This document shows positions 2,131-64,000 of a stretch of DNA of 64,000 nucleotides, one piece after another; position 1 is the stretch's first letter; each line of letters begins with the position of its first letter. Position numbers and translations under genes: made by a program. This stretch comes from Bilabrum cf. latius (taxonomy: Eukaryota). Below the pieces are notes generated by a model. The model saw only the letters and a list, made by a program, of their open reading frames with translations, was not told where the DNA came from and made no database searches. The stretch is from NCBI GenBank assembly GCA_965178125.1, contig OZ237739.1, positions 1,302,001 through 1,366,000 of the forward strand, given 5' to 3'.

Positions 2131-5100
2131 ATGCAAGGGTCGGCACGATATGAAGGCCAGTTTGCACCGATAGATCCAACAACTAGAACTGCCACAGTAT
2201 CGGGCACGTTGAGGGCTCAGATCGCGCGGGGACTAGGTGCGAGCCTTCAGGTGGATGCTACTGCCGAAATCCGCAGGATTTCAGAGTCCCGAACAATGCG
2301 TACGACGCTGGCTGCCACAGCAGCCAAAGATGGGTATTTGGGAGACGTTAAACGGGACCGTGCGTTGGCTAAGGTGCCTCGATCGGTGCTGAGCCGCACG
2401 GCAGTGCGAATTGGCGACGCAACTGCGTCCGTTGCAGGTGCAAACCAAGACGCTGCCGCAGTTGCGAATGACATCGATGAATTCGAGCGACGTTTAGAAG
2501 AACAGAAGAAGGCAAAAAAGGAGAAAAGCAGGCGCAAGCGCGGCAAGTCGACCGCAAAGTCAGTTGGGGCCCCAGCTGCTGAATCAAAACATGAAGTGAC
2601 GTCCGCCATGCGAGAGCTGAAAGAAATCGTCGACAGAGAACAACGAGACGGCACCGCAGGCATGCTGGTCGCGAAATCCGCGACCGCGGCACCGAGAGGC
2701 GTCACTACCGGCAGGGCGCTCGCCTCGGATGCTGCCCCGCTCGCGGCGGGAGCTACGGCCGCCATGCGACCAGACGTGCTCGCCTCCGCCGTCCGCGATG
2801 CAGATCTCAGCAACATGCGAGTGCAGGCCTTGGACGACGAGCTGCGCCGCTTCAGCAGCTTGGAAGACCTCCGTGTGAGCGGGGCGTAGATGCCGCTCCT
2901 CGAGCTGGGCTGCCTGCCGCCCTCTATCCGCAGCGTGCAGGCATACGGCTCGGGGATCGAAGAGGTCGCTTGGAGGGAGGGAGAAGGAGAAAAGAGGGGG
3001 GGAATGTCAGGGGGGTGGGGAAGCCGGCCGCCCAGCCGCGTCACTCGTCACACGATGGGCACAAGTCCGGGCTCAAGTGCCGGCCCCAGCGCAAGCGCCA
3101 GTCCCAGCGGCTCGCCCCGCCCGGGCGCCTCCCGCCTTGGGGTCACCACCGCCTCGGATGGAGGCATTCGGAGCCGAATTTAGGCTCGAATGGGCGAGCA
3201 GCTCACTCGGCTGGTGCACCTGGGTCTGGGGCACAACTCGATCCGGAGGCTTCCGGCTGACTTGCCGTCGCGGTGCCATGCCCTCCGCAGCCTGGACCTC
3301 GGGTGGTGTTCCCTGGAGAACGGAGAGAACCTTCTGCAGCAGGCCGAAGAGCTCTCACGTCTGTCCCACCTAAACACCGCTGGCAACCCCTGCTGCATGG
3401 CGGTGGGGTTCAGGGCCGAGACGCTCGCCAGGCTGCTGGGCCCGCCTTTGGGCCGTCGCACCATCGTGCAGTGCAGCACGGGCGCCCCTGGCCTTTCGCT
3501 CCACGAGCTGGACGGTGCCGGCGCAGTCAACGGATCCAGGAGGTATCTGAGAGAGGTGCGAGCTAGGGTGGAGGAGGCTGCCGTGGGCGGAGGCGAGCAT
3601 GGGACTGGGGCTGGGGCTGAGGCTGCTGCGGTCGATGGTGCATCAGGGCTGGGCGGGATGTCTCCACCGGGACAGCAGGCGGTACCGCCGATCGAGGGGA
3701 TATCTACTTCTGATATCTCTGGCTCTGAGGCAGCTAGTGCTAGCCCTCGTGGCTCAGCTGATATCTCTGGCTCTGAGGCAGCTAGTGCTAGCCCTCGTGG
3801 CTCAGCTGATATCTCTGGCTCTGAGGCAGCTAGTGCTAGCCCTCGTGGCTCAGCTGTAGCAGTTCCAATGTCTGGCCTGGCGCGATTGAACGATTTCCTG
3901 AAGCGTGCCCAGCGCTGCAGTGGCATGGCCTGGGAAGCTGCTGCTAGTTCACAGTAGGGCAAGTCACAGGGGAAGGAAGGGACAGGCGATGGCTCTCCTC
4001 CTACGTCTCCCTCTGATGGATACACAGAGGGCTCCAAGCCAGCCACCTCCCGCAGCAGCGCACGGAGCAGCAAGGGCAGCAGCAAGGGAAAGGGGGCCAA
4101 GGGCAAAGGCAAGACAGCCTCCCCGCGCCCTGCATCCGGCGCAGGTAACAGCAGCGGGGATGAGTCCGCCCAGCCAGCAAAGCCTCGCTTCAGGGCGGAA
4201 GTGTCCCCGCCGCTGCAACGGGTCCTGTAGCCGCTGCAGCCCGGCCTCAAGTGGAGGGGGAGCGCAGCCTCAGGGGCGTACGCCCTGGCCGGCCCACCTG
4301 CTCTAGAGGACGGCCTGGTGCTCCTGCGGGTGGGTGTGGGCGCGCTGTGGGGCCTACCCGCAGTGGAGCCGGTGCTAATGAGGCTGCTGCCTAGTCCCGG
4401 AGGTGGGGCGGGAGGTGGGGCGGGAGGTGGGGCGGCGGGGGGAACTGACCTTGGGTACGACCAGTACCTGGAGTTGCTTGCAGCTGCGATTACGCGGCAG
4501 AAGTAGGTCGATGATTCCGCGATGGCAGCCGTGGCAGGGACCGACGAGGGTGAGGGTAAAGAAGCTGCAGGCGGGGGCGAGGCAGTGGGCGATTCTGCGG
4601 CAGGACGCTTGGGCAAGCCATCGCCGCGGGCAGGGAAAGGAAAAGGAAAGGACAAAGGCAAGAACGAAAAGAAGGCAAAGGGCAAAGCCAAGGGCAAGGG
4701 CAAGGGCAAGGGCAAGGGCAAGGGAAAAGGCGGTGGGGCCGGCGAGAAGGCCGAGGAGCTGCGGGGTATCCGGCAAGCGTGCCAGCGCGCAGCAGCAGAT
4801 GCCATATTGGACTGGTGCGCAGCGGGGGCCAGGCGCACGCGTCTGGTCCTGTCGGTGGGTCTCCGCGTGCCGCCGCCGCTGGCAGCAGAGCAGGCTAGAA
4901 CGGCAGACCCGCTCGTCACGGCGGGGGTGCTGTTTCCGGCGGTGCCATCGGCGCAAGAGCCCGAGGCAATGACGCAGGCGGTCTCGGCGGCGGCGGCTGC
5001 TGCTGTGGCAGTAGACTCCGAGTCTGGCGATCGAGGTTCGGAATCAGGTTCAGGGAGTCCCAAGGCCAATGGCCGCAGCGGAAACAGCAAGGGAAAGGGG

Positions 5101-6717
5101 GGAGCGTCCAAGGGCAAGAAGGTGTCCCCGAAGGGAAAAGGAATGGGCAAAGGGTAGGAAGAAGAAGAGGAGGATGATGGGGGAATGCGGGAGGTCAAGG
5201 AGCAAATCAGCATCGCCGAGGAGCTGCGTCGGCGCATGTGGTCGAGGGAACTGCCGCCGGCAGTGGTGCCTGACTTGCGGGCATGCGTGGCGGCCCGTCC
5301 GTCTGTCGCAGTCAGGGACGCAGCGGCACACGAGGGGCTGTGGGTGTCTCTGGTGGAAGAAGAGCTGGACATGGAGGTGGGGAAAGTGGACGGGAGCGGC
5401 GGAGATGCCGCTGAAAGTACGAGAACCCCACCTGATTTCTGGGAGTCCGTCTCCGGTGTGGTGGAGGCTGTGCCTGAGGGTCATGTAGCGGAGCATGAGG
5501 TGCTGGCAGCCGGGGCCTCTCTCCCAAGATAGGACTAGGACTAGGGCCAGGAGGGTGTCAAGAGTAGCAGCATCGCGGGCCTGGACCTGGCGGGGTACGA
5601 GGCACTGAGGCGGAAGGAGGACCGGGTGCTGCAGGGCAAGGAGGATGAAGATGAAGATGAGGAGGAGGAGGACATAGCGGAACCAGGTGCTCCTGCCGGT
5701 GTGGCTGCATCGGGCGCGGCCATCCCAGGAGGATCTCCTCCGCACCGGCAGCAGCCGAGGGTGCTACGGAGGAGGCTCCTGGCGGAGGGGTACCTGCCCG
5801 CTGGAGACCTGCCGTGTCCAGGCACGGAGCATCAGTGGGCAGCTGAGGCAACCGGCAAGGAGGCGTGGCAGGCGGCGGCACGGGCTGCGGAGTGCGGGGG
5901 TGCCGCAACTCCAGCCGAAGCGCTTGCACTGGAAGGGGTTTCTGCCTCCAGTATGGACGATGGCGATGGTGCTCAGGCAAAGGGCAAGGGCAAGGAGAAG
6001 AGCAAGGCAAAGGGCAAAGGGAAGGGGAAGAAGGGGGGGGCTGATCCGGAACAGGAAGATGTGCCACAACCCGCCGTGAGGCCAGTCTCCAAGGCACAAC
6101 AGGACCCTGCCGAAGCCGTGGCTGCGCGGCGCCGCGCTGGACAGGTTCCGCTGCAGCTCCACTGGCGCGAGCTGCCGTGTGCGTTGAGAAGGGCGGCTCT
6201 GGCGGTGTCACTGGCCAGGGTGGTGCGGCGGCGCGGGGGTTAGGGCCTGGAGGATGTTCGGGGCAGCAGGGGCGGTGCTGTGGGTGGTGGAGAGGGGGGG
6301 GAAGAGGAGGAGGGCGATGGCGGGGACGAGGCTAGGGCGCTTCGGGCAGCGGCCCAGGCTGTGCCCGCCCCCGCCGTGCTGTCTGCCCCGGCATGCCAGG
6401 CGGCCAGTGGTGCGACGAGCGGGAGCATGGTGTTTGGGGTGGCGTTGAGGAGGGGCGAGGGCGAGCTGGACGAGGTGCAGGGTGTGCAGGGGGTGATGAA
6501 GGTTAGTCTCCGAGCCATCAAGAGAGGGTTGTAGTCGTGGCCACTGGATGGCGAGAGGGTGCCCAAGGAGGGTGGCCCTGCGTCTGACAAAGAGGGCGCG
6601 GTGTCTGGAGACGGTGGTGGCGAAGCAGCGCGTGCGACTGGGATCCCGCCCCTCGTGGCTTGGACATCGTTCGAGGCGCTGCGGACTGGGTGCTGGTTCG
6701 CAGAGGATGGCTCTTAA
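2131..6717 (+). CDS. Leucine-rich repeat protein (LRRC43-like), ~1528 aa with TAG=Gln
   Basis: One frame from ATG 2131 interrupted only by 11 TAGs (2887, 3181, 3955, 4228, 4504, 5155, 5530, 5536, 5542, 6241, 6532), ending at TAA 6715. LRRs: FSSLEDLRVSG, LTRLVHLGLGHNSI, LRSLDLGWCSL, and cap LSHLNTAGNPCC. The LRRC43 resemblance is from memory. Confidence 0.75.
3710..3856 (+). repeat. Three perfect tandem copies of a 48-bp coding unit (DISGSEAASASPRGSA)
   Basis: CTGATATCTCTGGCTCTGAGGCAGCTAGTGCTAGCCCTCGTGGCTCAG starts at 3710, 3758 and 3806. Confidence 0.95.
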
Positions 6718-6877
6718 TCTGCGGCGGCGCATCGATGGTGGCTGTGGACGCGACGGGGGCTTGCAGGTATTTGAAGTTTGCTCCTTGAATTTTCCACCTA
6801 GGAATTCGCAATCCACCGCACGGTGACCGTGCACTGCACCGGCAGTGGCCCTTGGACTCGGAGCGTCAGCTAGATAT

Positions 6878-8887
6878 ATGCTTTTCTCTACTTTTTTTCG
6901 TGCCATGCTCCGACAATGTGGGTCGCGGTTCTTTCGACTGAGCTGTGGGAAACACCGCAGCGTGCAGACCCGGTCCTTGCTCCCCAGCGGACGAATTTTG
7001 AAGTCCATCACCAGCAAGTGCTTCGCGATGGATAGCAGAGAGGTATCCCGCTCCATCGCTTCATCGGCGACAAATTCTCAATCTCAGAGGCAACGAAAAG
7101 CTAAAGCATCGTAGGGATAGTAGCAGCAGCAACCGCAAAAGAGATCTGAGCCTCCCAAGAGTAGGAGAGGAGCTGGCGTGGAGAACCAGGTAGTGCTATC
7201 GATGTCGGGGATCACCAAGGTGATTCCAGGCAACCGATAGCTGTTGAAGGATGCAAGCATGTCATTTTGGCAAGGCGCTAAGATTGGGGTCCTTGGTCTT
7301 AATGGATCAGGCAAGAGCACACTGCTGAAGATTCTGGGCGGAGTTGACAAGGACTACGATGGCGAAGTCACGCTCAAGACGGGCCTGCGAGTCGGGTATT
7401 TGCACCAAGAGCCTCCAATGAGGCAAGGATCAACCGTTAAAGAAGCGATTTTCGAGGGCTTGCGGGAGCAGCTGGATCTGATCGACCGGTTCAATGACCT
7501 CAGCAATCGAATGGGCGAGCCAGACGCCGATTTCGACAAGCTGATTGAGGAGCAGGCAGAGGTTTAGGGATTAATCGAAGCCGCGGATGGATGGAACCTG
7601 GAGCACCTGGTAGGAATCGCAAAGCGCGGCCTGAACGTGCCCCCGGACGACGCTCTGGTGGATTCGCTTAGCGGCGGGGAGAGGCGGCGTGTTGCCCTCT
7701 GCCGGCTGCTGGTCGAGAAGCCCGACCTGCTGCTGCTGGACGAGCCCACAAACCACCTGGATGCAGAGTCCGTCCACTGGCTTGAGAGGTTCCTGGAATC
7801 GTATCCCGGTACTGTGCTTGCGGTGACACACGACAGGTATTTCTTAGACAGCGTGGCCGGATGGATCCTGGAGGTGGATAGAGGAAATTTGTACCCTTAC
7901 GCTGGCAACTACAGGGTCTGGCTCGAGCGCAAGCAGGAACGGTTGAACTCGGAAGCGCGAGCAGACAAGGCGGCCAAGCGGGAGCTGGACGAGGAGCTCC
8001 AGTGGATCCGGGCGGGCACCAACGGGAGGCAGCGCAAGAGTGGTGCTCGGATTAAGGCATTCGAAGGCAAGCAGGACGATCTGCTGGCCAAGCAGCAGGC
8101 GCAGAGGTTCAAGACGGGAAGGATCGCCATTCCCCCTGGTCCTCGCCTGGGTCACGATGTAGTGCAGGTGGAGAACCTCACCATCTCCGTGCCCAAGGAC
8201 CGGCCGACCGGGGGCGACGGTCGCGAGGGAATCGACACAGAGGACGATGGGTCGGGCGAGCGGAGGATTTTGGTGGAGGAAGCCACGTTTACCATTCCCC
8301 GTGGAGCTCTGGTGGCCGTGGTGGGGCCCAATGGGGCGGGCAAGAGCACGCTCATGCAGACCCTCCTGGGACTCCGGAAGCCAGACTCTGGCAAGCTCGT
8401 GCTCGGCAAGACGGTGCAGCACGCGTACGCAGACCAGGGGCGCAACCTGGAAGAAGGCTAGACGGTGATACAGGCCGTCGCTCAGAACCAGGAGAACGTC
8501 GCGGTGGGAGACCTCACCGTCCACACGCAGCACTACCTCGCCAAGTTCAGCCTCTCGGGCGCCATGTCCAAGAAGATGGTCAGGGACCTTTCCGGCGGCG
8601 AGCGGTCGCGGGTCCATCTTGCTCGAACTCTGCTGAAGCCATGCAACGTGCTTGTGCTGGATGAGCCCACGAACGATCTCGACGTGGAGACTCTGCGCAG
8701 TCTGGAGGAGGCGCTCGAGCAATACTAGGGAAGCGCTCTCGTCGTCAGCCACGACAGGTACTTCTTAGACAGAGTCTGCACTCACGTGCTTAGTTTCGAA
8801 GGAAATGGCAAGCTACGTTGGTTCGAAGGGTCCTTTTCGGACTGGGAGCAGCGCTACGGCGCCAAGACCAAGCTGGCCACCTCGTGA
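6878..8887 (+). CDS. ettA: ABC-F ATPase, EttA-like, with a putative mitochondrial presequence, ~669 aa
   Basis: Motifs [105 protein letters not shown] and [12 protein letters not shown]. Continuous through 7 TAGs (7112, 7118, 7121, 7238, 7565, 8459, 8726) to TGA 8885. Start is 6878 or 6905. Confidence 0.92.
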
Positions 8888-9007
8888 ACCTTGCGGCTAC
8901 CGCTGCATGACGTGTACATTGTATTGAACAGAAACAACCAGTTGCGTGTGGTAGTGAAACTAGAAGAGAACAGATTGAGAGACAGTCAACAACATGGGCA
9001 AGTTGCA

Positions 9008-11464
9008 TCACTTGCCGCCCTTGGCCTTTGTGGCCTCCGACTTTGGCAAAAAGGCGGGGGGCTGTCCTCCCGCACCTGCACCTGCTGCACCTGCAGCGAC
9101 TTTCTTGCCCCATTCGCCAGAAGGAGCTGCGCCCGCGGGGGCAGCCGCTGCCTTCCCTCCCTCGCCGAGGCTCGGGAACGACCCAGGCTGGACGGTGTTT
9201 TTGGGTGTCGCCGATGACGAGGACTTCGCCTTGCTGGAGGAACCGCCCCCCTGCCCACCCTTCTTGCCACTGCCACCTCCACCGCCACCCCCGCCGCCAG
9301 ACCGATTGCTCCTCCCCCTCCCATTCCCTCTGCCATTGCCCCCGTTGTGCTTGCCACCCCCACCCCCACCGCCACCCCCGCGACGGTCACCACCACCACC
9401 ACTGCCCTGCTGCCGCCCCCGACCCTATCCCTATCCCTATCCCTATCCCTATCCCTATCCCTATCCCTATCCAGGACGCGGCTGCGCGAACCCCTACACA
9501 GGCACACCCCCCCCCTGCATGGGCGGCCTCGGAGCCTGCATGCCCCCTTGCATGCCAGCGCCCGCCACCGGCAATGCCATGCCTCCATGCTAGCCGGGCA
9601 TACCTGGCATGCCACCAGCGGGATACCCCATCATCGGCGCCCCAGGACCGCCAGGAGGTATCCCCTGATAGAACTGCGGAGGCGGGGGCGCGCCCATGTA
9701 TGGGCCTGTCGCACCCTGCACGAATGGCTGCGGCATGCCCCCCATGGGCACCCCTCTCGGAGGCATGGTGCCGGCCCCCGGACCGCCCATCCCGCCTCCC
9801 ATCGGCATGGACATGGGCACGCGGGCACCGCCCCAGCCGCCAGCATGCGGGGGTGCCATGCCCATCGAGGTGTGCACTGGCGGTGGGCCCATTGCCTGGC
9901 CAGGCCCTGCCATCGGCATGCTAGGGTGTGGCCACCCCTAGCTTGCTGCCATGCCCGGGCGTGGGCCCGGCGCTGACTGGCCTGTCGGCTTGAAGACGGG
10001 GGCGTTCGGATCTAGCTTGAACGGTGCGGCATTAGGGTCGAGCTTAGTCTTTGCCTTGGCTGGTGCCGGTGCTGGAGCCGGCGCTTGGCCCTAAGATGCC
10101 GCAGCAGGTGCAGGTGCAGGAACAGGTGCAGGAGCAGTGGCCGGGGCCAAGGCAGCAGCTGAACCGAGTCTCTAGTTCAGACCCATGGAGAACTGCCTCA
10201 AACTCTCCACCTCTGTTTGGCGATCCACTGAAGCAGGCTTTCCTTTAGAGCTGGAGCTCTTGTGCACCAACTTGTGACCCTTCTTCCCACCGTGCCTGGA
10301 CAGGGCCTTGCGATGGGCGTGCCCATCCTCTTCGAGCTTCTGGAACACCCTTGCCTTGACGTCCAGCTGCTTCTTGGCTTGTTGGTTCCCGACGGGTGCA
10401 GCAGCCGGGGCAGCAGCCGGGGCAGCAGCCGGGGCAGGAACGGGAGCAGGAGCGGGAGCAGGAACGGGTGCCGGGACGGTACGGCGAACGTCAGAGAACC
10501 TTCCCTCGGAGTCTTTCTCGTCCTTGCCACCCGCCGCTGCCCCGGTCCTCCAGCTCTTGGCACCCTCCGCCGCTCCCGGCGAGCCCATGGGAGCAGCTCC
10601 ATGGCCGATGGATTTGCCCTTGCCTTTGCCCTCGATGGCTGCGGCCGCCCTGGCGATTTTCCTCCGGTCCTCTGCAGAGAGCTCCCTCTCGTCCACCTTT
10701 TTGGTCGTGTAGTCCTGCTCCTTGAAGCCGTCGAACTTGACACCGATGTTCTCATTGGCCTTGAACTGATCGAAGGATTTGCCGGAGGAGATGGCGTCGT
10801 TCGGGGCGCTCCCGGCGTCCTGGGGCTGCAGCCACGACTGGTCCACGTCCTCCAGCTTGCGCTCGCCGCCGGCTGCACCGCCGTGCCCCTGGCGTGCCTG
10901 GGCCACTCGCTGCCCGATCTGCGCGTCCGTCGTTCCAGAGATAGACCCGGATGCCATGGACGTGCCGCCGTCGGGGAAGTACGCATCTTCTGCGCACATC
11001 TCTTCGATGGCAGTCCACGGGATAGTGAGGAAGTTTGCTTGCTTCTTTGGAAGTGAGATCGCCGACTCAAGAGAACCCTTCTTCTGCGCGCAACAAAAAA
11101 TAAATCATGCATGTTGCGTAGAATGATAGGAGTCCATACTTAGGCCACGCCACGATAAATTCCAGGCCAGTGTGAACTTACGGCGCAGTAATAGTGCTGC
11201 AGGTTCACCGACTGCTGGCTCGAGTTCGACCTGTCGCTTGAATGGTATTGCCCAATCCATTCCGATCCGTCGACACAATAGACAGTGACCTTCTCTCCCT
11301 GCGAAGATGCAAACAGGCATATTGGCACGGGTCCAGGTATCACCAGGGTGTAGCCGCACGTAGAACTCACATTCATGCCGCACGTGCGCAATACTGGTGA
11401 CCAAGCCCCGAGTTCTTACCTGGAGAGCAGTGAATGCATAAAGGACGCGCTCAGCCGATGACAT
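9008..11464 (-). CDS. ATXN2: Ataxin-2/Pbp1-like protein (Lsm, LsmAD, tandem PAM2, Pro/Gly/Met-rich and RG-rich tail), ~745 aa; exons 11464-11420, 11298-11182, 11083-9008
   Basis: Sm-like start ERVLYAFTALQGEKVTVYCVDGSEWIG, LsmAD FDQFKANENIGVKFDGFKEQDYTT, and PAM2 KLDPNAAPFKLDPNAPVFKP. Two GT-AG introns (121 and 98 nt) keep frame. About 13 in-frame TAGs. Ends TGA 9010-9008. Confidence 0.85.
9425..9472 (-). repeat. (GGATAG)8 coding repeat = (Gly-Gln)8 under TAG=Gln
   Basis: (CTATCC)8 on the plus strand, read GGA TAG in the ataxin-2 frame. Confidence 0.9.
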
Positions 11465-11596
11465 GATTTGCTTTCTATGTACTGAATGGGGCAGACTAAA
11501 CTATTTTGCCCTCTAGGCCCAAGTAACGTGTTGTTCCTTCTCAAAAAAATCAGAACTTGAGTGCCACCGACAAACTGACGGTCCATTCCAGCAGCA

Positions 11597-14500
11597 TCAC
11601 TCCTCCATGGCTTCTGAACCGCGGGACTTATCCACTGGGAGCTCACCAGGCAGCAGCATCGCATCGTCGTCGTCTTCATCGTCTTCGTCGTCGTCGTTGT
11701 CGCCCTCACCTTGCCCCGCGCCGCTTTGCTGCTCGTCCGGGCTAGCTGCATGCTGGTGTCCACCAGCGGCCCTGCCACTGCTAGTGTCCCTCAACGCAGA
11801 TGACGACTATGCAGCACCAGTCGATGCCCCTTCCATTCTCTACTGATGCAAAGGCTCGTCTTCCTCCTCGCCTGAACCAGCCGTCTCCCCACGTGGCTCT
11901 GCGTCAGCCGCACTCGCCCTGGCCTGCGCTGCAATGCGCTGCATCCTATCCAGCGCGCCCGACAGCTCCGACTCCACTGCTACCAGCTTCTTCAAGCAGC
12001 CTTCGCTGCCAGCATCCACGCTCCACATAGCAGAGCCCGCCCCTTGCTCGGACCAACCCGCGCCCCCACTGCCAATCCCACTGGCGCCGCTGGTCGTGTT
12101 CCTCCCCGCCGAAATGCCCGCGGTGCTCAAAATCTACACCAGCGCGCCGTCATCTACCAGTAGTTTCAGCTCCGAGTCCTGCCGCGAGGGAACAAACACC
12201 GGCAGCCGAAGCTCACCCGCCGCACCGGCCCCGCCCTGCCCTACCCCTAACCCAAGCCCGCCTCGGAGACACGCAGCGGGCAGCTTGCCGACGTCCTCCG
12301 CGTCCAGCCCCAGCGCCGCCGCCATCTCCACCAGCTGTTCCCTGCGGGCCGCAGCGGCCTCCCTGACAGTGACGAGTGCCTGCCTCACCACTGCCAGGGA
12401 CAGCGACAGCAGAGCGCCAAACGACCTCCTTGCCTCCTCCGGGCTCGACCTCGCGCCCACGATTCCCCGGTCCCCTACCCTCTCCAGAACCTTGCCCACG
12501 GCCCGACGCAGCCTGCCGCTAGGGTCACCCCCGTGCTCCACGGCCTCCTGCTCCACCAGAGCCCCTGCTGACCGCCTGGGCCACCGGTGCCCTCGCCCTT
12601 CCCCGTCTTCGAAGTCGACCTCGTCATCGTCCTCCTCGTCCGAGCTCTGCATGGCAGACCGCTTCCGCTTCTTTCCGCGGAGCCTTTTCCCGCCAGTCTT
12701 CTTCCCCCCCTTGCCCTTGCCCCTAGATCCCGCCTTCTTCTTCTTCGGAGCCGTTTTCCGGCCTCCCACGATCTTGACGAAGATGCCGGTCGTGGGCTCT
12801 GGCTCCAGGCCCAGCTGGATGCACCGGTTGCGGATGGCAGTCTCACTCCTCTTGGCCCCCGAGGGGAACTGCAGGGTCTGTGCCAGCGTGAACACAGCGC
12901 TCTCGATGCCGCCGAGGCTGCCGTGCTCCTCCTGTAGCGCCTTGTCGTCTTCCTTGGTCCAGGCAGGCCCCAGCCCGCCGCCACCTCCACCGGCCATGTC
13001 CTCCTCCTCGTCTTCGTCTTCGTCATCCTTCATCGCGTCGACAGGCGCGGATGGCTTGGCATCGCTGACCGGCAGTGCCTCTGCGGCCTCCCACGCCCGG
13101 ATCCGGAGCGCCCTGAGCTCAGCCTCCTCGTCGTTATCGTCGTTGACGGCAGCCGTCGCGTCCCACTCCTCCTCGTCGATCTCGCCCCTGTTCTGGGCCA
13201 GCTGCTCGTCCGCTTCCATCCTCGCCAGCTCGGCCTTGGAAGGTCCCCTGCCCGGGCCCTTGGCACCGCCGCGGCGGCTGCCCTGCGGCACGAGCTCCTC
13301 GTCGTACCCCACCGCAAGCAGGAGGGTGGCACCTCTCTCCCGCCACGTGATGGCCTCCACCAGCACCAGCGGGGACACAACCGAGGCCGTGGTCAGCGTC
13401 TGCACCACCTCCATGCACACCACCACGAATGGTGCGTACTGAGGCTTAGCCACGCGGCTGCCCGCAGACAGAGGCAGCCCGTCGGCACCGCGCTGCCCGG
13501 GCTTGGCCGCCTCCAGCAGCCGGAGGTCCGTCAGGGCTGCATTGCACACCTCCAAGAAATCAAAGTGCCACAGAAGAGGAGCGAAGGTGCGCGGGAAGCA
13601 CGCCTGCTGCGCAGCCGCCAGCCTGTCCTGCGCGCCCTCCTCCTCGCTGATCGCCTTCTCCATCACCTCGCGCGCCGCCTTGGCCTCCTCATCCAGTGCC
13701 GCGGCCCTGTCCAGCAGCTGCGACGTGGTCATGCCCAAGATGCCGGACTTGCCGGCGCCGGACGCGTCGCCGTCGCTCGCGCCGCCTCCAGCAGAGCCGT
13801 CGGCCGACCCCTCGCTCGGCCGCTAGGCCCCCGCGTTTGCCTGCCTCGCCGCCTCATCCGAGGCCTGCTGGGCGGCGTAGTACTTGGCCTGTGTGGGCTC
13901 GACCGCGGCCGCGCGGATGTCGAAGTCGATGGCTGCGCTGCGGTACTCCTTCACGGCGCTCCCGTCGCAGATCGACCTGAGCCTGCTCTCCACGGCACTG
14001 GGGTCCTGGTCCGGGATGGGGTGCCTCAGGATGCGCCGCATGATGTCAGCGGCCGCCTGCAGCTCGCCGGTGGGCAGCTCCGCGTAGCCTTGGGCCACGA
14101 AGAGGAGGGCCTGAGCTGCCTTGGGCTGGACGAGCTGAGCCAGGTAGCCGTGGTAGTCGAACGCCTCCTCGCGGATCTCGCTGGACGCCTTCTTCTTCTG
14201 CTGCTGCTCGCGCATGCCCTGCGCCACTTCCTCCTCGTCCTCGTCCTCGTCCTCGCCCGCAGCTGCGGCGCCGCCCCTCCTGCGCCTTTTTTTCTTCTGC
14301 ACCAGGAATCCATCCCGCGCGAGGGCCTCTCCCATCGACAGCATCATCTGCATGCAGCTCACCAGGTCGAGCGTGAAACCAGAGGTGAAGCGCCCGAACT
14401 CCCAGTTGCGCATGACTCGAGGCACCACCTCCATCACCTCACGCTCGTAGAAGAGCATCCGCACCATGGCCTTGCCCACCGCCCTCGAGTCGTCGTCCTC

Positions 14501-16962: not shown

Positions 16963-17118
16963 GACGGCCTGTCCTGCCGCCACCAGCTATAGTTGCACCA
17001 GCAAGCACCGATTTTGAAATCTGTATGTTCCGCTGCTCCGGATTCGTTTTGCGCGGCGCCACTTTGGATTCCCCCCGGACAAGCAGAGCTGTAGCACTGG
17101 AACCAATAGGATTCCAGC
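16963..17118. promoter_or_regulatory. Probable bidirectional promoter between Timeless and DENR
   Basis: The divergent start codons are only 156 bp apart; promoter function is inferred from geometry. Confidence 0.45.
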
Positions 17119-17999
17119 ATGGCCGGTGTTGCTGAGGGTTCATCACCATTTGTAAATGAGGATGGGACGCTCAAGGAAGTGAAGACCGATTATTGCCCCC
17201 GTGAGCAACCAGAATAGGTTGATCGTTCTCAGCCCGCCGAGAGCATGCCAATCCACGCGCATCATAACCATGTTCGTCCAATGAATAATGCATCTATATC
17301 TATGCAGATTGCGGGTTGCCGTCTGAGTTTTGTGGATTTGCACCGGAGTACGAAACGCTGTGCAAGCCTCACTTGGCCGAGACGAACCCCGAGTTGCTGG
17401 CTGAGATCGAGGATGAGCGAGCAAAGGGGTTCAAGCTTGTGTCGAAGAAAGCGCCAAAGGTAGCCGCTGCGCCCGCAGAAGCTGCCGACCCGGCAGCAGG
17501 AGCAGAAAGCGCCACTGCACCAGCATCCGGCGCGGGAGCCGGCGGCGACGAAGCCGCACCTGCCGAGGCGTCTGCTGAAGGCGGGGACCCATCTGCACCA
17601 CCGCTGAGTCCAGAGGAACGCGCTAAGCGCGAGGCTGAGGTGAAGGCGAGAGCGGCCCGCGCCGCGAAGTTTGTCATGTGCGTGCTTCGCGAGACACGCG
17701 CGAAGAAGAACAAGAAGAACAAGAAAGACAAGAAGAGGAACAAAGTCTCTACCGGCATCGTGGGGATCGATGCCGCGGGTTTGGACCCCAAGGAGGCCTG
17801 CAAGACGCTTGGCAAGCGCATGGGCACCGCCTCCGTGCTGACCAAGAGCGACTCTGGCAGGCCTGAGATCTAGCTGCAGGGCGACCACATGAGGATCATC
17901 CCGAGGATCCTGGTGGAGGAACTGGGCGTGGACAGCGGGATCATTCGGATCGTGGAGGAGATCGACGGCAAGCTGCGAGCCAGGAAAGCATTCGCCTGA
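17119..17999 (+). CDS. DENR: Density-regulated protein DENR/Tma22 (Zn-binding N-terminus plus SUI1 domain), ~257 aa; intron 17201-17307
   Basis: Spliced DYCPHCGLPSEFC, then RNKVSTGIVGI..LDPKEACKTLGKRMGTASV and EI[TAG]LQGDH. Ends TGA 17997. Confidence 0.88.
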
Positions 18000-18180
18000 T
18001 GAAGGCAAGTGCTGGAGAGCGCCAGTGGATCGGGGGCGCTCTGGTTGGAGAGAGAGTAGAGGTCCGTGCTACAATTTTGTAATGCGGTAGGACAACCTGT
18101 ACATTTCTTTGTCTAGTAACAACGCATGCCACCGCACCGCCAGCAATGGCTGGTCCATACCATACCATGCCCAGCCTCAC

Positions 18181-19662: not shown

Positions 19663-20124
19663 TCCGAAACATCCGGTGGCGAGTGCTGCATAAATCCAAT
19701 TTAATGCCGAAGAACCTGATCTGCTATCATTGATGCGCTATGTTGCAGCAGCAGGGGCATTGCTAGTTCGTAGCACAGAGGCACAGGACCGTCGGCTGGA
19801 ATTCAGCAATCTCGTAGCTATCTTGCCCGCTCTGCGAGCCGTACCTCCGATCATAACACTAATTTGATTTGAGGATTAATACACTAGCTATCAGTGTTTG
19901 TTCACGCGCGCACGGCTCGTAAATTGCAATTAAGCAAGAATACAGAAATACATTTGAAACAGCTCGGTACAAACACGCTGATCGAAACCGGAAGTGGCGA
20001 CCACCGAAACGCAGTCCGTTGCATTTGCGACCTTCCCAGCTATCACGTTGGACCTATGAGCAAGCTGGTTATGGAAACCAGCTGATTGTTGTATTGATTA
20101 GATTATCGTACGTATCTGCTTGCT

Positions 20125-53183: not shown

Positions 53184-53390
53184 TACAGCTGCTAAAAGAC
53201 CGAGTCTGCAAAGTGAAGCCACTCAGCCAGCCGTAATTAGCAGTCAGGCGGCTTCTGCCAGGTACGTTAAGGTAAGTCTAAAGCGTGCTGGGCGCGCCGT
53301 TCGCTGTGTGCAACCGGTTCCGCAACTTGAAGTGGCGGCCTCAAGCCTCTATCGGCCGTGCAGGCCGTTGCATCCACACACACGCACAAG

Positions 53391-54161: not shown

Positions 54162-55553
54162 TCAAGACTGGCTTTGCTGTACCCCGCTCTATCCGGCGGC
54201 AGAAGGCGCTTGAATCGTGGAGTCGCTCGTGGAGTCGCTCGATACGCCCGCTGTCGGGGGCCATCGCCGAGGCAGCTGATCCGCAGCCGTGCCAGTGGGA
54301 TACTCCCTGGAGGCACCTGCTCGTGCTGAGCCGAGCAGGGGCGCGCGTGCTCGCCCAGAGAACAACGGAGCAGCGGCCCTGCCGCCCCGCACAATCCGTG
54401 CAATTCCACGGCCTGAAGCCATACTTGTACAGCCAATGCTCATCCATCCAATGTCGTCGCCCGGAGCATCTGCCCCGTGCTCGCTTCTTCGGCCAACCTC
54501 CGCCCTCACCAGGCTGCTGGCACCAACAGCATCGCTTCCAAAGGCGAAGGCCTAGTTCCCCCGGAGCATGAGTCCTCTGGCCCCTGCAGATGTCCCCGAG
54601 GCGGGGACGGCGGCGACCCAAGCGTGCCCCGGGCCATGGAATTGCCCAGGGGTCAAAGTAATTGCAGTTGATTCTGTCTGCGAGTCTCCGAGCATCATGG
54701 CTTGGCGGGGAGCTGCACGGTGACCCCATGGCTGGTGCGCACTCTGCGTGGCACTACTAGTACCACCCGGGCTGCCACTTGCAGCTGACTTGGGTGTGCC
54801 GCCTTGCTCGATGCTGCCTGTAGCAGGTGAGCCTACGTCAATATTATCTCTCGCTCCAGGCGCACCGACAGTCAGACATTGGTTCTACTCTCCCGAGGGG
54901 CAGGCTGTGCCGTCCGAGGGCAACTCGTCTGCCTTTGCAAATGCAGCTCGAACCGCACACATCATCGTTTCACTTCGCACTGCGTGCCCAGTGTTGCCAA
55001 GTAGGACTGCCCCAGGGCTATCACCTGCCACAATCTCACGCGTACCAATTTTTCCTTGCGTGCGTTCTTCTTGCATACCGTATACAGACCACTGCCACGG
55101 TCTTACCGCCGCATAATTGGCACCAGCTGCATCAGGGTGCAGATACCCTGTACCGGGCACTACTGGCATCCCTGCCTTTGCTCGGCACTTAGATGCATCC
55201 AGCCCCGCTCGAAAGGCTTGTCTAGAACTTTTCGGTCGTATATCTTCCAATTCTCCGGGGCATGTCTTGCGCGAGCGAGTACATTGGGCCGAAGTGGCGC
55301 GAGGCATCATCCTCTGATGCTTCGGTTTTACGCAATGTATTGCCATTTGAGCGCCACTGACAGGAAAATTACTGCCTAAAATTTCTGTTGTATCCCCCAA
55401 ATGCCGCTGATAGTCACGGTGTGAGTCGGTAGCAGCTTGGGCTCGCGCAACCTCAACCAGATTGCTTGCGCCACGGCGTCGCCACGTCACTGCGTCGTTG
55501 ATGGGGGGCGATAGGGAGGGGACGGTGTTGCTTTGCAAATGAGACTGCATCAT
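54162..55553 (-). CDS. Hypothetical protein, tandem paralog of the 3' half of the 56525-59575 gene; 5' end unresolved
   Basis: A 464-codon frame broken only by 3 TAGs. It shares RPKSSxxAxRAGLxxSKxRxxxGxPxVPG and GASRExPTGTAADQLPRRWPPTAGVSS with its neighbour. Confidence 0.55.
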
Positions 55554-56524: not shown

Positions 56525-59500
56525 TCAATCATCGGTCTCGCTCGATACGCCCGCTGTCGGGGGCCATCGCCGAGGCAGCTGATCCGCAGCCGTACCAGTG
56601 GGATGCTCCCTGGAGGCACCTACTCGAATCTCGCGTGCTCGCTCAGAGGGCGGCACGTCTGCTGCCCTGCCACCCCGCACAACCTGCGCCATCTCGGGTC
56701 CCGCCGGTCCGGTCGCATGCGACGCGCTCATCCAGGCCCCTGCCCCGTGCTCGCCTTCCGCGTCTTCAAACACGGCGCCCGGCACGTCCCGATCGGCGGC
56801 ATCAGCACCGCCTTCCTGCGCGCTTTGACCGGCAGTATCCCGCAAACCGGCTCCTTGCGCCTGTGTATTTGATGCAGTTGCACCCGTGCTGCGTTGGACA
56901 AGCTCGTGCTTGCCATGGAGGCCAGCGCGTCCATCAGCGCCACCAGCGCCGTCACCTGCTGCTCGGAGGGCTGCCACTCGCCGCCGGAGCACCTCTGCTC
57001 TGGCCATCGCGGCGTTAGGAACACTCTTTGCGAGTGTGGTATCATGCTGTGCTTGGTTGGTCGGGTGCAGCCCGTCTTGCTGTTGGTCCTGAGATCGAGG
57101 TCGCTCAATGCCCATTCCGCGATGAGCTATCACGGCGCTGCGGAGATGCTTTTTTCCTACATAATCTTCCCGCTCTTTGTCTGCATCATCAAAGGGGAGG
57201 CCCTCGTCCCATTCAGGCAGCAAGGCAGCTGCTGTGGGGCCCACAGGTTGGTGAGCATCTGGTCCACGAATCGCTGCCTGCCCCTCTGCCGCTGCAATCG
57301 CCGCGATTCCAGTATTCCGAGAGAGATCGACTCGCCCCGTGGCGTAGTCTGCGTACGTATCACGCACTTGAGCGCGATCGGGAGACCAGGGCGATGTCAT
57401 TGCAGCTCGCCATGCCCCCACGTGGCGCTGGCTCGGCCGGTTGCTGGCAGTCAACCTACGGCCGGGAACAAGTGGCAATCCTTCCTCCACTCGGCGCTTA
57501 GACGATTCCAGTCCAGCTCGGAGAGCTTCATCAGAGCTTTTTGGGCGGTTTTCTTTCCTGGAGTCCTCGGTTGGCTCCTGTGGGCGCGTCGGCAGCGCCG
57601 AGGTCGATCGAATGTGCCGGTGGTGCCGCCGGCTGCCGGCTGTTCTAATCGCCTACGCGGGTTCCGTCGGGCAACCAGCGGATCGAAGACTTTCGCTTAT
57701 TCCTTCCGAATCCGCTGCCGGGGGCTGCTTAGTGCCTGCTGGTGGTGCCGAGTGCCCAATGACAGCCTTCGGATCGCCACCGCCGACACCCGCTGCAAGG
57801 CCATATGATGAGCGGGTGAAGAGATCTTTCGTGTCAAATAGGCTATAACGCAAGCAGATTGACACTGCTACTGTTCACTCACACTGTTCGTCTAAATGCG
57901 TCGGACCGGTCGCCTGTGGCTTGTCGCCGGCGGCGTCCTCGATAGATGTCGCAAGCCGGCCGGGACCGTCTGGTAGTGCTGGCGCCACGGTATCGACTTT
58001 AGGTGTAGATGCTGCCACCCTGGCGTCACGTTTAGTCTTCTTTACAGCCGCACTTAATTCGCCGCTCGATGTATCCATGCCGACAGGATCAGCTTGACCC
58101 GCGGTCTCCTGTGTGCCAGGGCCACCTGCGAAAGGAGTGTTGCGCAACGGGTGACAACGGCCCATCTTGAAGAGATGCATCCGATCTAGACGGATGGCCT
58201 TGGGATCAGCTCCTGGCCCAATCCAAGAGACCAACTAAGGCCGCAAATCAAGCAAGCAGAGTGTCTCACGTTCGTCTGCAGCAGCCCGCCCAAGGTCAGG
58301 ACCGTTGCCTCTCTCATGGGGTCCAGACTCCTACTCCTGATCCTGATCCACGCCTCCATCACCTGCCTCCATGAGCAACTTGCCCTCTTCGTACTCTCGC
58401 CTGCGGATGAACGCGGGGGTTCCCAGGGGCGAAAACGCGCTCGACTCCTTCGATGGCAGCGGCTCACCCCTGTCTCTGGCTGCCTTGCGAGCCACTGCCT
58501 GCACCACCGCCAGCAGGCACGCGTCGGGGGACCGGCGAAACCGCTCCCGCAGCTGCGCAGGGCTGAGGGGCTTCACACCACGCTCTTGCCACTCCTTGGC
58601 TCCCTGCTCCTCAGGTGCATCGCACTGCTGTGCCTGCCTAGAGGCCGAGACAGAAGAGCCCATGCCTGGGAGAGTCCGCCCGTGCATCGAGCCGGCCTTG
58701 CTTGCATACGGCGAGAGGGGAGCTCGAGCAGAGGCGGGGGGACTAAACCGACGCTGTTGGCTGGTGTGTGTCATTGCCGGGCTGCGTGTAATGGCACCTC
58801 TGATATGGCGCTAGTAGGACTGGGTGGCGCCCCTCGGGGCAGGGTGCTTTGGCCCGGGCCCGGGGGGGCGGGCTGGGGACGGAGAGGGTGCAGATGATGC
58901 GGCCGGGCGCGGATCTAATTGTTCCTCGCTCTAATCAGCGTGTGCGGCGGCCCCGGACAGCTCCGCTGCCAGGTTGCGGGCCACGGCGTGCCCCAGGTGC
59001 TCGCCCGTCTCGCCCGCTGCAGCTCCGATTACAGGCTGCTTGCTCGACGGTCCTCCGGTGCTCAACCTTCCCCCCGCGGGGCTGTCCCGCGGCTGAGATG
59101 TACGCCTGAGCCTCGCATCAATGTATGGCGTCTTCGATTCCTCTGCCCTGTGCACGGCTTCCGCAACTGCAGTCGAGATGGCTGACGCCAGCCTTCCGTT
59201 GCGGCGCGGGGTTCTCGTCGAAGCAGCGCCGGTACTTTTTCGAGACATGCTGCCTGCTAAAAGACGCTCAACCTTACGTTCGGCCTCCTCCCGTGCCATC
59301 GGGTTGTTCGGGCTTACGCTGGCGAGAGCGCGGTGGACCTGCACAGAGGAAACGGCAACGCATAGCACACAAGCAGCAATTCAGCCGTCCGGAGTGAGTA
59401 AAGCACCTGCTGCCACTACTCATCTCACAAGTTCGCCCTTAGACAGCCTATACTCTTCTTCGTCATGCTAGTAACTGTTCCAGGCTGGCTTTGGTCGAGC

Positions 59501-59895: not shown

Positions 59896-62800
59896 TCACT
59901 CCCCCGCATAATGCTGCTCCTGCTTGGCCCTGTAAGCCTCGAGAGCCTGGGCGCGGAGCTGCCTGGCCGTGGCCTCCCCTGTCTGGTCCACCAGGGAGGC
60001 AAGCAGCCCGGGCGCGCACCCACTCGTCACACCCCGTCCGCCTCCCATGTTCCCGTCCCCATCCGCACCCGAGTCCACCTTCCCGTGCTCCCCCGCCAGA
60101 CCCAGCAGCTCGGCAGGGTGCCCGAACTCGGCCACCTCTCCGTCCTTCATCGCCAAAATGTAGTCCGAGTCCATCACGGTGCCCAGCCGGTGCGCCACGA
60201 TGAGCATGGTCGACCCCTTCAGATCGCTGCGGATGGCCCGCTGGATCACGGCGTCCTCCGCAGGGGACACTGAGGACGTGGCCTCATCCATCACGCACAC
60301 GCGGCTCTTGCGGAGAATCGCCCGAGCCAGGCACAGCAGCTGCCGCTCCCCCGCAGACCAGTTCCCCCCGCCGTCCTCCACCTCTGCGTCCAAACCGCCG
60401 CGCCCGGCCCCGGAACCACTCGCCACACCGACCGCACTCGTCACACCAGACCTCGTCACACCACCACCACCACCACCACCACCGCCGCCGCCCTGCCTCC
60501 TCACCGCATCCCCCAGGCCCACCCTGTCCAGCGCCTCCCACAGCTGCTCGTCCGAATACTCTCCGAACGGGGCCAAGTTGTACCTCACAGTGCCGCTGAA
60601 GAGCACCGGGTCCTGGGGAACAAGGCTCATGGAGCTCCTGAGCTTGCCCAGGGGCACGCCCGCCACGTCCACGCCGTCGATCTTGATGCAGCCTCCCGCG
60701 AAATCGATCATCCGGAACATGGCGAGCATCAGCGTGCTTTTGCCGCTACCCGTGCGGCCTACGATGCCCACCCTGCTGCCCGCCGGCACCTTGATGCTGA
60801 CGTCCTTGAGCACCAGGGGCAGACCCTCGCGGTACCGCGCGCTCAGCCCAGACAGCTCGACATGGCCCCGGAACGGCCAGCGCCGAAGCTCGCTGGGCCA
60901 TCGGGACCGGTCCCAGCCGGGCGCCAATCGAAGCAGGCTGGTGGGAACGCCCACTCGCGCCGCCCAGCCCCCCCGCTCCCCTTGTTGTTCCCTGGATCCC
61001 GCCGCCCCCTCGCTGCCCTCGTGCTCCGCCGCTGCCCCGATGGCCCGGTCCTCCGCCTCTGGACCCGCGGTCAGCTGCTCCCTGGGCACCCTCCCTATGT
61101 AGAAGAGCAGCCGCTCCACCGAGGTGAACAGGGCCTCTGCCTCGCTCGCCTGCCGCGTGGCGAACTGGAACACCCCCGCCGTCTGCAGCGCAAACACGAG
61201 AGCCAGGCCGGCGATGCCCCCGGACTCCGTGCCTCTCGAGAGGACAGCCACCAGAGCGGTGCTGAACACGATCAGCGTGGTCACTGTGTCGAGGCGGATC
61301 CCCACCCATCGGTTGCAGCCGTAGAACGACGTGTAGGCCCTGTCATTCGCATCGGACAGGGCAAGGAACCTCTCGAAGTATGCGTCCCCGGCCCCGAACG
61401 CACGCAGGGTGGAGATACCCTCAAGCGAGGTCTGCAGGAGAGACACGATCGGGGACCGACTGACACCATCCAGCCGCTTGAGGGCCCGCACGCTCCTCCT
61501 GAAATACTGCAGGATGGCGTAAAAGAGGTAGGCGATGGGCAGCGCGCCCACCAGAAACCAGGGCAGGAACACCGCAACGCTGACGATGGACAGGCCAACG
61601 AGAGACACAGTCTCCAGTGTGGTTTGCAGCACGGTGGGCAGGGTCTGGTCCACCAGATCCTAGTCCGAGGTGAACCTGTTGATGATCCTGCCCAGCGGAG
61701 TCCGGTCGAAAAAGCTCCTCGTGGCCTGGATGATGGATGCAAACACCTCGTCGTGCACATTGCGGGACGCCTCCAGAGACACCAGGGCGAAGGTGGCGCC
61801 GAACAGCAGGGACAGGGCGAAGACAGCCGAGCTGGCGATCACATACGTCGTCGTGAAACGGATCAAGTCGTCCTCCGCCAGCCCAGCCCGCGTCGTGACG
61901 TTGGCAGGCAGCCCGTCTTTTGCAGCCGCGGCCGATGCGTCCACCCACTCGCTTACCGAGAAATCCGCGACCACCCTAGAGCTTCTGCTGGCCAGCAGCA
62001 GCACCAGAATCAGCACGCCCAGCCAGCAGGAGCCCCCTGCCGCGAAGTACTTCCCGACTGTACTGCACGACACGCTGCCTTCTTTCCTGTCCTCTTCTGA
62101 GGTGAGCGTCCCGCTCGCTGGCTTACCAGTAGCCGCCGGCTTCTCGTCAGCCGACGGAGCGGCGGCCGCCTGGAGAACATCACTCTGACTGGAGCCTGCG
62201 GCAGAGGCGCCACCGTTGCTACTGGGCTGCGCGGACCCGCCCTGCCCGGCAATCTTGCTGGCCTCCTGGATGCCGACATCCACGTCGCTGGCTGCAGCTG
62301 TCGCCTGGGACGCGGCCGCCCCAACGTTCGCCTGCTGGTTGCCCGCCGCCGAGCTTTGCGCGTCATCTTCGCCGTCTTGCTTGCCGCTTGCCTCGTTCGG
62401 ACCATTGGTCTAGGCTTCCGATGCGGGTGGCGACGGAGAGGGCGAGGGCGACACGGAGCAGCCGTACATGCCCATGTCGACCCCCGCATCGCATAGCTGG
62501 GCAAAGCTGCCCGTGTGCTGCACCTCGCCCTGGGCCAGTATCACCACCTGGTCGCACTGGGGCAACCACTGGACCTGGTGGGTGACCAGCAGCACGGTCT
62601 TGCCCTGCTGCCGAAGCATCCCGTCGATGCACTGCTCCCACAGGTGCCGCCCCACGTGAGTGTCCACGGCGCTCAGGGGATCGTCCAGCAGCACAACGTC
62701 TGCGTTTGCGTACACCGCCCTGGCCAGCGTGATGCGTGCCTTTTGTCCCCCAGATGCGTTGAACCCCCTGGCGCCCAGCTCTGTCTGGTCCCCGTTCGGA

Positions 62801-64000
62801 AACATGGCCAAGTCGCTCTCGAGCGCGCAAGCCCGCACCACCTCCCGATACCTCTTCTCATCGAACTAGCTGCCAAACAGGATGTTGTCTCGAACAGAGG
62901 CATTGAAGATCCACGCCTCCTGCGCGACGTACGACACGCTGCCGCGAAGGCCCGAGCTCCCGCCCAGCTTCACCATGCGGCCCAGCAGGGCACCCAGCAG
63001 GCTGCTCTTGCCCGAGCCTACCGGCCCAGCAATGCCCACCACGGACCCCTTCGGCACCTCCAGTGACACGTCTCGCAAATGGAAGCCGCCGCCCGCACCG
63101 GTGCCGCTCTTGTCCACTGGCTGTATCACCTTACCACTGGCCGTCTTATCGGGAGCTTCGGTGCTATCGCCACCCTTGGTGGTCTGCTTGCTCTGGCCGC
63201 CTGCCGCCTTACCGCCCCCTCTGCCTGCGTTGGGTCCCGGTGACGGAGCGCCTCTTCTCTGCAGCACCTGCGCAAGCGCTTGTTCCCTGTCCCTGTCTTC
63301 CTGCCGGTACCAGGCAAAGGTGGCGCCATGCAGCCGCACGGCCACGGGTCTGGCCTCCGCATCCGCATCGGCATCCGCTGCACTGGCACTCTTGTCTCCA
63401 GCTGAGGGCGCTGCAAATCGCCCATTGGTTGGGTGTGACCCGTCTCCGTTCAGCTCAGCTACGGCCTCATCGTCCGCATCTGTCGACCCGGGCGCGTCCG
63501 CCAAGGCCACCGCGGTGCTGGAGCTAGCCGATCCGCTATGTGATGGCTTGTTCGCGCTGGGCGAGTTGGTTGGCTCGTCTTCAAGTCGGTCAGGCATGTC
63601 CCCGCGGGAAGCTTCTGGCAGCAGCAAGAAGGCCTGTGCCCTTTCAACGCCCACGATCGCCTCGCTGACGAAGCGCAGGCCCAGGGGTCCAACCGTGACT
63701 GGGAACCGCAGCACGTTGAACAGAGCCAGCACGCTCCACGCGGCATCCGCCCTGAGGGGCTCCCCCAGCACCAGGGAGTGGAAGAGGAACGTGACCAGGC
63801 CAACGATGAGGCTGGAGGTGAAGCCCAAACCGGAAGAACACGCCCGGATCCACGCGGCCGTCCGCAGGTGCGCCACTTCCTCCCCCCTGATGTGCGCCAC
63901 CCTCGCAGCGAAAGGGGCCTCCCAGGCCATCTGCTTGACCAGGCGGATCCCGCGCAGCACCTCGGTCATGAGACGGACCCTCTGGTCGGTCAGACGGACG
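59896..64000 (-). CDS. ABCC/MRP-type ABC transporter, 5'-partial (end of TMD1, NBD1, TMD2, NBD2)
   Basis: GPVGSGKSSLL, YVAQEAWIFNASVRDNILFG, SGGQKARITLARAVY, LLDDPLSAVD, FFDRTPLGRIINRF, GRTGSGKST, WSAGERQLLCLARAIL and IVAHRL. TAGs at 62866, 62410 and 61660. Ends TGA 59898-59896. Confidence 0.93.

Follow-up and report, generated by a model that had tools for sequence, protein, structure and literature searches.

Genes of the window and its in-frame TAG codons

We analysed a 64-kb stretch of contig OZ237739.1 (assembly GCA_965178125.1, positions 1,302,001 to 1,366,000 of the forward strand; hereafter the window, with positions counted from its first letter), whose protein genes, on both strands, are nearly all crossed by in-frame TAG codons. 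The subject of this study is what UAG means in these genes. The guanine-plus-cytosine (GC) content is 0.58-0.70 across the window (~0.63 overall), in keeping with the GC-rich genome of the original prediction, a reading of the letters alone that had proposed UAG as a sense codon, most likely for glutamine. The coding-frame set comprises 16 modelled frames, 17,921 codons in all. Family matches are to Pfam, and sequence matches to the PDB were taken at E ≤ 1. The genes, and one coding repeat, are as follows.

666-1997, plus strand: GDSL-like lipase gene (Lipase_GDSL, E 3.3e-4, below the curated cut-off), 439 codons, no TAG, ends in TGA
1528-6717, plus strand: long open frame, 1729 codons stop to stop, weak LRR matches, 11-12 TAG, ends in TAA
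6827-8887, plus strand: EttA-type ABCF ATPase gene (ABC_tran, E 2.8e-52; ABC_tran_Xtn), 7 TAG, ends in TGA
9008-11104, minus strand: low-complexity protein gene, 13 TAG, covered in part by spliced contigs of two public runs (X6 and X7)
9425-9472, minus strand: (GGATAG)n microsatellite in coding frame, read as (Gly-Gln)n
11597-16531, minus strand: Timeless gene, large exon (TIMELESS, E 7.4e-08), 1644 codons, 6 TAG, ends in TGA
17308-17999, plus strand: DENR exon 2 (SUI1, E 6e-12; DENR_N, E 3.6e-4), 1 TAG within SUI1 (PEIXLQGD), ends in TGA
18181-19875, minus strand: gene with no assigned family, earlier labelled Tom40-like, 7 TAG, ends in TGA
20098-32973, plus strand: giant gene, a single open frame of 4291 codons, LRR_6 and IQ-rich regions, 12 TAG, ends in TGA
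33961-36870, minus strand: gene with no assigned family, earlier labelled DCTN4, 5 TAG, ends in TGA
36871-38361, minus strand: acyl-CoA thioesterase gene (4HBT_3 and 4HBT_3C, E 1.3e-16 and 2.7e-10), 2 TAG, ends in TGA
38057-45682, minus strand: long gene with no assigned family, 2541 codons, 9-10 TAG, ends in TGA
46763-48190, plus strand: possible gene, less certain, 471 codons, 3 TAG, one of them two codons before the TGA
48365-50125, minus strand: RsfS (ribosomal silencing factor) gene (RsfS, E 7.9e-19) with a long N-terminal extension, 4 TAG, ends in TGA
50538-53222, minus strand: gene with no assigned family, 894 codons, 2 TAG, ends in TGA
57875-59380, minus strand: possible gene, less certain, ~474 codons, 4 TAG
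59896-63999, minus strand: ABCC (MRP-type) transporter gene (ABC_tran, E 9.1e-43; ABC_membrane, E 2.1e-36), 3 TAG, ends in TGA

Read with the standard code, the window has longest open frames of 1348, 766 and 621 codons. When TAG is read as sense, the longest grow to 4291, 2541, 1729, 1644 and 1367 codons, and when TAA is read as sense the lengths are practically unaltered. Reading through TGA also lengthens many frames (up to 1348, 1247 and 1229 codons), because TGA is the commonest stop triplet of GC-rich DNA. TAG was found in frame 89 times after the first Met (91 times counted stop to stop), in 15 of the 16 frames (all but the GDSL-like gene); the prediction had been close, with 18 of about 20 genes and about 100 TAG. 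Its frequency is 0.50% in frame vs 0.61% off frame. In the same DNA, the off-frame triplets include 219 TAG, 88 TAA and 550 TGA per 35,810 (TGA being 2.5 times commoner than TAG), from which ~110 TAG, 44 TAA and 275 TGA would be expected in frame. Neither TAA nor TGA occurs in frame among the 17,921 codons, a zero that is partly circular, the modelled frames having been delimited as stretches without these two triplets. Frames of 900-4300 codons, however, would be impossible by chance at 1.3% stops per triplet, and the completeness of the encoded domains, together with the frame lengths, argues that the zeros were not caused by the frame definition.

The 16 frames, a small sample of terminators, end in TGA 15 times, in TAA once and never in TAG, as had been foreseen. 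With TGA as the sole stop, the main frames (giant, Timeless, ABCC, ABCF, RsfS and others) are unchanged and contain no TAA. The TAGs are spread along the genes and are not depleted in the last deciles; one lies 2 codons and another 12 codons ahead of a TGA terminator. Counted as glutamine, TAG makes up 89 of 787 codons for this residue (~11%; CAG and CAA together 698), and the TAG:CAG ratio of 89:575 (0.155) is near that of the synonymous pair TTG:CTG (156:763, 0.20). A codon table in which UAG is glutamine and UAA and UGA are stops, the layout of NCBI table 15, is supported for the window.

The GC content at third codon positions (GC3) separated sense from antisense frames too weakly to be of use in frame detection. 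An antisense open frame of 776 codons, with TAG read through, lies opposite Timeless (14139-16469, plus strand). Because long antisense open frames are usual in GC-rich DNA, an open frame of some 500 codons is poor evidence for a gene here, and it is uncertain whether the frames at 46763-48190 and 57875-59380 (~470-500 codons, 7 TAG together) are genes.

TAG codons are retained in spliced transcripts

Fifteen public sequencing runs from 10 studies, some from 2025, contain the ABCF stretch or part of it. None of them is recorded as RNA, and the RNA nature of runs X6 and X7 was deduced from splice joints. Contigs of four runs were compared with positions 2001-22000 of the window, where 48 of the in-frame TAGs lie. 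Those of run X5 are identical to the window and unspliced, and so behave as DNA. In the pieces listed for X6 and X7 there is not one letter that differs from the window, and their joints skip three stretches of 98, 121 and 107 nucleotides (nt), the first two bounded by CT..AC (GT..AG on the minus strand) and the third by GT..AG.

11084-11181, minus strand: intron, 98 nt, GT..AG, joint 11083>11182 in X6 and X7, unspliced in X5
11298-11418, minus strand: intron, 121 nt, GT..AG, joint 11297>11419 in X6 and X7 (marked "cut +1" and "between: not known")
17201-17307, plus strand: intron of the DENR gene, 107 nt, GT..AG, joint 17200>17308 in X6 and X7

The intron length of about 100 nt given in the original prediction therefore stands. 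Removal of 17201-17307 joins the DENR exons into YCPHCGLPSEFC, and the two minus-strand introns place upstream exons of the low-complexity gene at 11182-11297 and beyond 11419.

As these joints are spliceosomal, the X6 and X7 contigs derive from RNA. They match the window across at least 28 of the 48 TAGs: all seven in ABCF, all seven in the gene at 18181-19875, the one in DENR, five in the low-complexity gene, five in the first long gene and three in the giant gene. The identical pieces include 6908-8935 over ABCF (X6), DENR exon 2 (X7) and 18091-19908 (X6 and X7), and a 12.8-kb X6 contig begins at 20042, at the giant gene. A TAG that is unchanged in a spliced contig was neither edited nor spliced out, so for the genes covered UAG is present in the mRNA, as the prediction required.

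Relatives pair TAG with glutamine

Run X9 provided a syntenic relative, a 26,755-nt contig over 10171-21933 with 8-10% differing letters. For the giant gene, eight protein fragments of relatives (87-99% identical) were aligned, five of them from a contig of 26,755 nt; relatives' database proteins are fragments because gene calling with the standard code breaks genes at TAG. Ten of the 12 TAGs of the giant gene are crossed by fragments, which have Q at eight, E at one and G at one; of the other two, one is uncovered and the other falls at a fragment end, taken to be a shared stop. Seven fragments end inside the gene. At these ends the codon that follows in the window is CAG in three cases, CAA in two, and TTG and TAG in one each; as these are protein data, an end may be a stop of any kind or the end of a contig. 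The C-terminus of the giant gene matches one relative's fragment (P0242) up to the TGA. No relative of the giant gene was found among GTDB genomes and viral contigs.

A search of representative proteins with Timeless returned 56 at E ≤ 0.001, the seven closest of which (69-100% identical) were aligned. Window TAGs stand opposite Q at residues 866 and 1429, opposite E at 1527 and at a shared stop at 1538, and two near-identical fragments (P0255 and P0260) end right before a window CAG. A metagenome scan (JGI) yielded a single locus, contig L001, with a Timeless orthologue 74% identical over 703 residues. Four TAG but neither TAA nor TGA occur in its 704-codon frame (against 5 TAG, 3 TAA and 28 TGA off frame), and three of these four TAGs are opposite window CAG and one opposite AAG. 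Fragments P0256-P0258 repeat the L001 sites, which were counted once.

Over the relatives' alignments (69-100% identical), TAG is paired with Q in 10 of 13 cases, with E in two and with G in one. In comparison, CAG is paired with Q in 143 of 176 cases and CAA in 23 of 26, while Q makes up 4.1% of all partner residues, so the enrichment of TAG columns for glutamine that the prediction called for is present. The single-base neighbours of TAG rarely pair with Q (GAG 0.7%, AAG 2%, TTG, TCG, TGG and TAC 0%), and mutational closeness to CAG alone is therefore no explanation. A likelihood was computed with BLOSUM80 from 27 comparisons, in which the residue was Q 20 times, E twice and G, S, D, L or K once each, the end of fragment P0253 being left out; Q was ahead of E, the next best residue, by 16 log10 units. 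Judged from these alignments, TAG acts as a glutamine codon, and it is the close relatives that decide the residue.

TAG sites are sparsely shared. In the ~90% identical relative, a stop stands at no more than two of the 14 window TAGs open to comparison, and none of six sites is common to the window and L001. The TTG codons of L001 likewise have no site in common with window TTG and are mostly opposite CTG or CTC, and the sparse sharing would be ordinary synonymous T/C turnover under strong GC bias. Because in-frame UAG also occurs, at different sites, in at least two related organisms, the code is that of a clade, with at least three diverged members: the window, the ~90% identical relative and the relative with 74% Timeless identity.

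Distant homologues agree in part. One TAG column of ABCF has Q in 112 of 120 bacterial homologues. In the thioesterase, a TAG at a conserved Gln (in LATSRXLAM) is matched by Q in both PDB hits, chains 3bbj_A and 3rqb_A, and the second TAG by S in 3rqb_A. With few conserved columns in one window, distant homologues alone would not decide the residue.

UAG as glutamine and the alternatives

The window is best explained as nuclear DNA of a GC-rich, intron-poor eukaryote in which UAG has changed from stop to glutamine, with UGA as the usual terminator and UAA also terminating; we give this a probability of about 0.9. Three independent lines support it, namely the frame statistics, the TAGs retained in spliced transcripts and the comparison with homologues near and distant, and the central claim of the original prediction is upheld by all of them. 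By analogy with other such codes, UAG would be decoded by a tRNA-Gln with anticodon CUA, in which C at position 34 means that UAG is read and UAA is not. Recognition of UAG by eRF1 would be lost or weakened, so that it no longer competes there. Near-cognate reading by tRNA-Gln(CUG) is an alternative mode of decoding.

Several observations weigh against this reading, in addition to the partly circular definition of the frames. ARAGORN found no tRNA gene in the window, which does not contain eRF1 either, and the tRNA-Gln(CUA) is a proposal based on other codes. TAG is also paired with residues other than Q: with E twice, with G once, with S and D in L001 (as TCA, in a low-complexity stretch that aligns badly, and as GAT), and, in the reverse comparison, with K (AAG) and L (TTG) once each on the window side. 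The other EttA columns at TAG have K in 104 of 120 and P in 99 of 120 homologues, with one column mixed (E/T/F/Q), and the ABCC columns are E/P/D, a gap, and M/L/Q. One Timeless fragment (P0253) ends before a window GGC. Two giant-gene fragments (P0244 and P0247) end just before window CAA, at codons 1586 and 3148; TAA is a single-step change from CAA, so the relative from which they come could have in-frame TAA, subject to the double meaning of fragment ends given above.

That last point is what an assignment of both UAR codons (UAA and UAG) to glutamine, the layout of table 6, would build on, the scarcity of UAA being put down to the GC-rich genome: the two fragment ends lie one transition from TAA, and TAA serves as terminator in one gene only. 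From the TAG:CAG ratio and 123 CAA codons, however, ~19 in-frame TAA would be predicted against the none found, and the main frames keep their limits and are free of TAA even when TGA is the sole stop; we consider this layout improbable. A marginally better chance, still a slim one, goes to an ambiguous UAG that is glutamine inside genes and also a terminator near mRNA 3' ends. Codons that are both stop and sense occur in Condylostoma and in karyorelict ciliates, and in Blastocrithidia for UAA. Sixteen terminators are few and compatible with a minority use of TAG as stop, and the TAGs found 2 and 12 codons before TGA are indistinguishable from TAG stops with a few open codons behind them. What speaks against ambiguity is that no frame ends in TAG, that the giant gene agrees with its relative's fragment as far as the TGA, and that TAG, spread along the genes, is not depleted in the last deciles.

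UAG could be a sense codon for another residue (Glu, Leu, Ser, Lys, Tyr or Trp), for which the E, K, L, S, D and G partners and the EttA columns dominated by K and P might be cited. As Q is found in 20 of the 27 scored comparisons and any other residue at most twice, and given the likelihood lead of Q and the 0-2% of Q opposite neighbouring codons, we think this very improbable. Hardly credible is the view that no code has changed and that pseudogenes, assembly errors, RNA editing or splicing account for the TAGs. It would have to accommodate that one of the three stops alone occurs in frame, that the letters recur in DNA of independent origin (X5) and in contigs of spliced RNA (X6 and X7), that the corresponding genes of relatives contain in-frame TAGs of their own, and that the three introns seen do not remove any of the counted TAGs.

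Other features of the window

The housekeeping labels given earlier fared unevenly: DENR and Timeless were borne out by their family matches, whereas the products labelled Tom40-like (18181-19875) and DCTN4 (33961-36870) had no match in Pfam (E ≤ 0.01) or the PDB. A PDB sequence search with DENR exon 2 was without match. An AlphaFold2 model of residues 225-564 of the 18181-19875 product, from the single sequence, had a predicted local distance difference test score (pLDDT) of 32, too poor to use. An Rfam search of the window gave no matches at gathering scores.

The best homologues of the ABCF protein are bacterial EttA proteins (49-53% identity). It is thus a bacterial-type EttA encoded on a eukaryotic nuclear contig, with an N-terminal extension of ~120 residues, and may be targeted to an organelle.

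The (GGATAG)n microsatellite at 9425-9472 (minus strand) is a TAG-bearing repeat unit that has expanded inside a gene. CTANCC in three copies has 6 overlapping matches there vs none expected in shuffles, and the translation is GXGXGXGXGXGXGXG. Another repeat, a long hexanucleotide one at 1596-1840, encodes (Ala-Gly)n when read in the GDSL-like frame and (Leu-Val)n when read in a different one; the true start of the gene at 1528-6717 is probably downstream of the GDSL-like gene.

Genes are tightly packed around the thioesterase. The first Met of the next gene lies within ~90 nt of its stop (36871-36873), in the same frame, and at 38057-38361 the 2541-codon frame runs with its 3' end into the stop-to-stop frame that precedes the thioesterase first Met. 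Two direct repeat pairs (54235-54404 and 56538-56692; 89 nt at 97% and 61 nt at 74% identity, ~2.3 kb apart) sit in a stretch of ~53.2-57.9 kb without a confident gene. The 5' end of the ABCC gene is beyond the edge of the window.

Lineage of the source organism

Beyond the close clade, the best relatives of ABCC and Timeless are environmental or run-derived proteins with at most 43% and 36% identity, respectively. Named matches are few: Mucochytrium quahogii (a thraustochytrid), Aphanomyces stellatus (an oomycete), and the choanoflagellates Microstomoeca roanoka and Didymoeca costata. A quick ABCC tree of 24 rows, a single-gene tree whose rows are without ciliates or metamonads, placed the query in a clade with a support of 99 (SH-like approximate likelihood ratio test, SH-aLRT), in which the labyrinthulomycete M. 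quahogii is the sole named member. This clade is separate from that of choanoflagellate and animal ABCC5/12. The tree is a single-gene lead towards the stramenopiles and no more, and the clade with UAG as glutamine may belong among them. A TAG-free ABCC open frame brought up generic ABC clusters in the ESM Atlas and no taxonomic lead.

Significance

Few nuclear codes give UAG and UAA different meanings, and a new lineage, if it is one, would be an independent replicate for asking how UAG uncouples from UAA. A GC-rich carrier that terminates with TGA would be a misfit for codon capture under AT pressure; the code would be the first UAG-only-to-glutamine code in a GC-rich genome, and AT mutation pressure would be no explanation for the loss of UAG as a stop. 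The turnover of TAG and CAG would then be observable between close species, and with several diverged members and public transcript data, changes in tRNA and eRF1 would be comparable across species. In practice, gene callers that use the standard code break nearly all genes of the source organism.

Comparison with known codes

A change of UAG alone to glutamine is a known kind of code. The original prediction had called it rare and placed it in Iotanema and some ciliates, and the same carriers appear in the relevant passages of PMC11687900, which list, as of late 2024, Iotanema, Protocruzia and two phyllopharyngean ciliate lineages. The codon-table layout of the fornicate Iotanema spirale, in which nuclear UAG is glutamine and UAA remains a stop, is the same as that of the window (Panek et al. 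2017, PMC5304391). The window differs from Iotanema in that it encodes RsfS and an N-terminally extended ABCF of EttA type, and these two sequences suggest an organelle that translates. Such an organelle is not expected in a fornicate such as Iotanema, an anaerobic metamonad.

Codes in which both UAR codons are glutamine are also reported from ulvophytes, hexamitids and many ciliates. Among non-ciliate eukaryotes that read UAG as glutamine, the aphelid Amoeboaphelidium protococcarum is like the window, and is given as UAR = Gln in the pertinent parts of PMC5304391, PMC6299283 and PMC11687900. As a parasitoid of algae, Amoeboaphelidium would fit a sequence found in runs labelled with several organisms. 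It was rejected as the source on the GC content (40.5% and 39.9% for its genomes in Table 1 of PMC10608142, vs ~63% here), the absence of in-frame TAA and the lack of a close named match, no Amoeboaphelidium protein being among the named hits.

Two further systems share part of the pattern. According to the portion of PMC11687900 that treats them, UAG is serine in Scotinosphaera and leucine in the rhizarian exLh and some ciliates, so that nuclear UAG is uncoupled from UAA and made sense, as in the window; here, by contrast, the partners of TAG are mainly Q, with S and L once each. The crAss-like phages described in PMC9523058 use genetic code 15, with TAG as glutamine. Theirs is a recoding in bacterial hosts, whereas the genes of the window are nuclear and eukaryotic, with spliceosomal introns.

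We found no literature report of a UAG-only-to-glutamine code in a GC-rich non-ciliate, a stramenopile, a labyrinthulomycete or thraustochytrid, or another new eukaryote for 2023-2026, in a search for which subscription journals and supplements were mostly outside the scope. An independent, undescribed origin of this code in a clade of protists that are not ciliates, with GC-rich (~63%), intron-poor genomes and TGA as terminator, is a tentative proposal, to which we give somewhat less than an even chance. Composition and stop usage are unlike those of the known carriers, and the inference of the original prediction, a non-ciliate in which the code may have arisen independently, is plausible only. 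A further point of comparison is Protocruzia tuzeti and the two phyllopharyngean lineages, in which UAG is glutamine and UAA and UGA are stops (McGowan et al. 2024, PMC11687900, in the parts concerned). The same parts give these ciliates a GC content of 27.4-53.6% and stops that are mostly UAA, with UGA least used. The window, in contrast, has a GC content of ~0.63, ends 15 of its 16 frames in TGA, is gene-dense and has GT..AG introns of ~100 nt.

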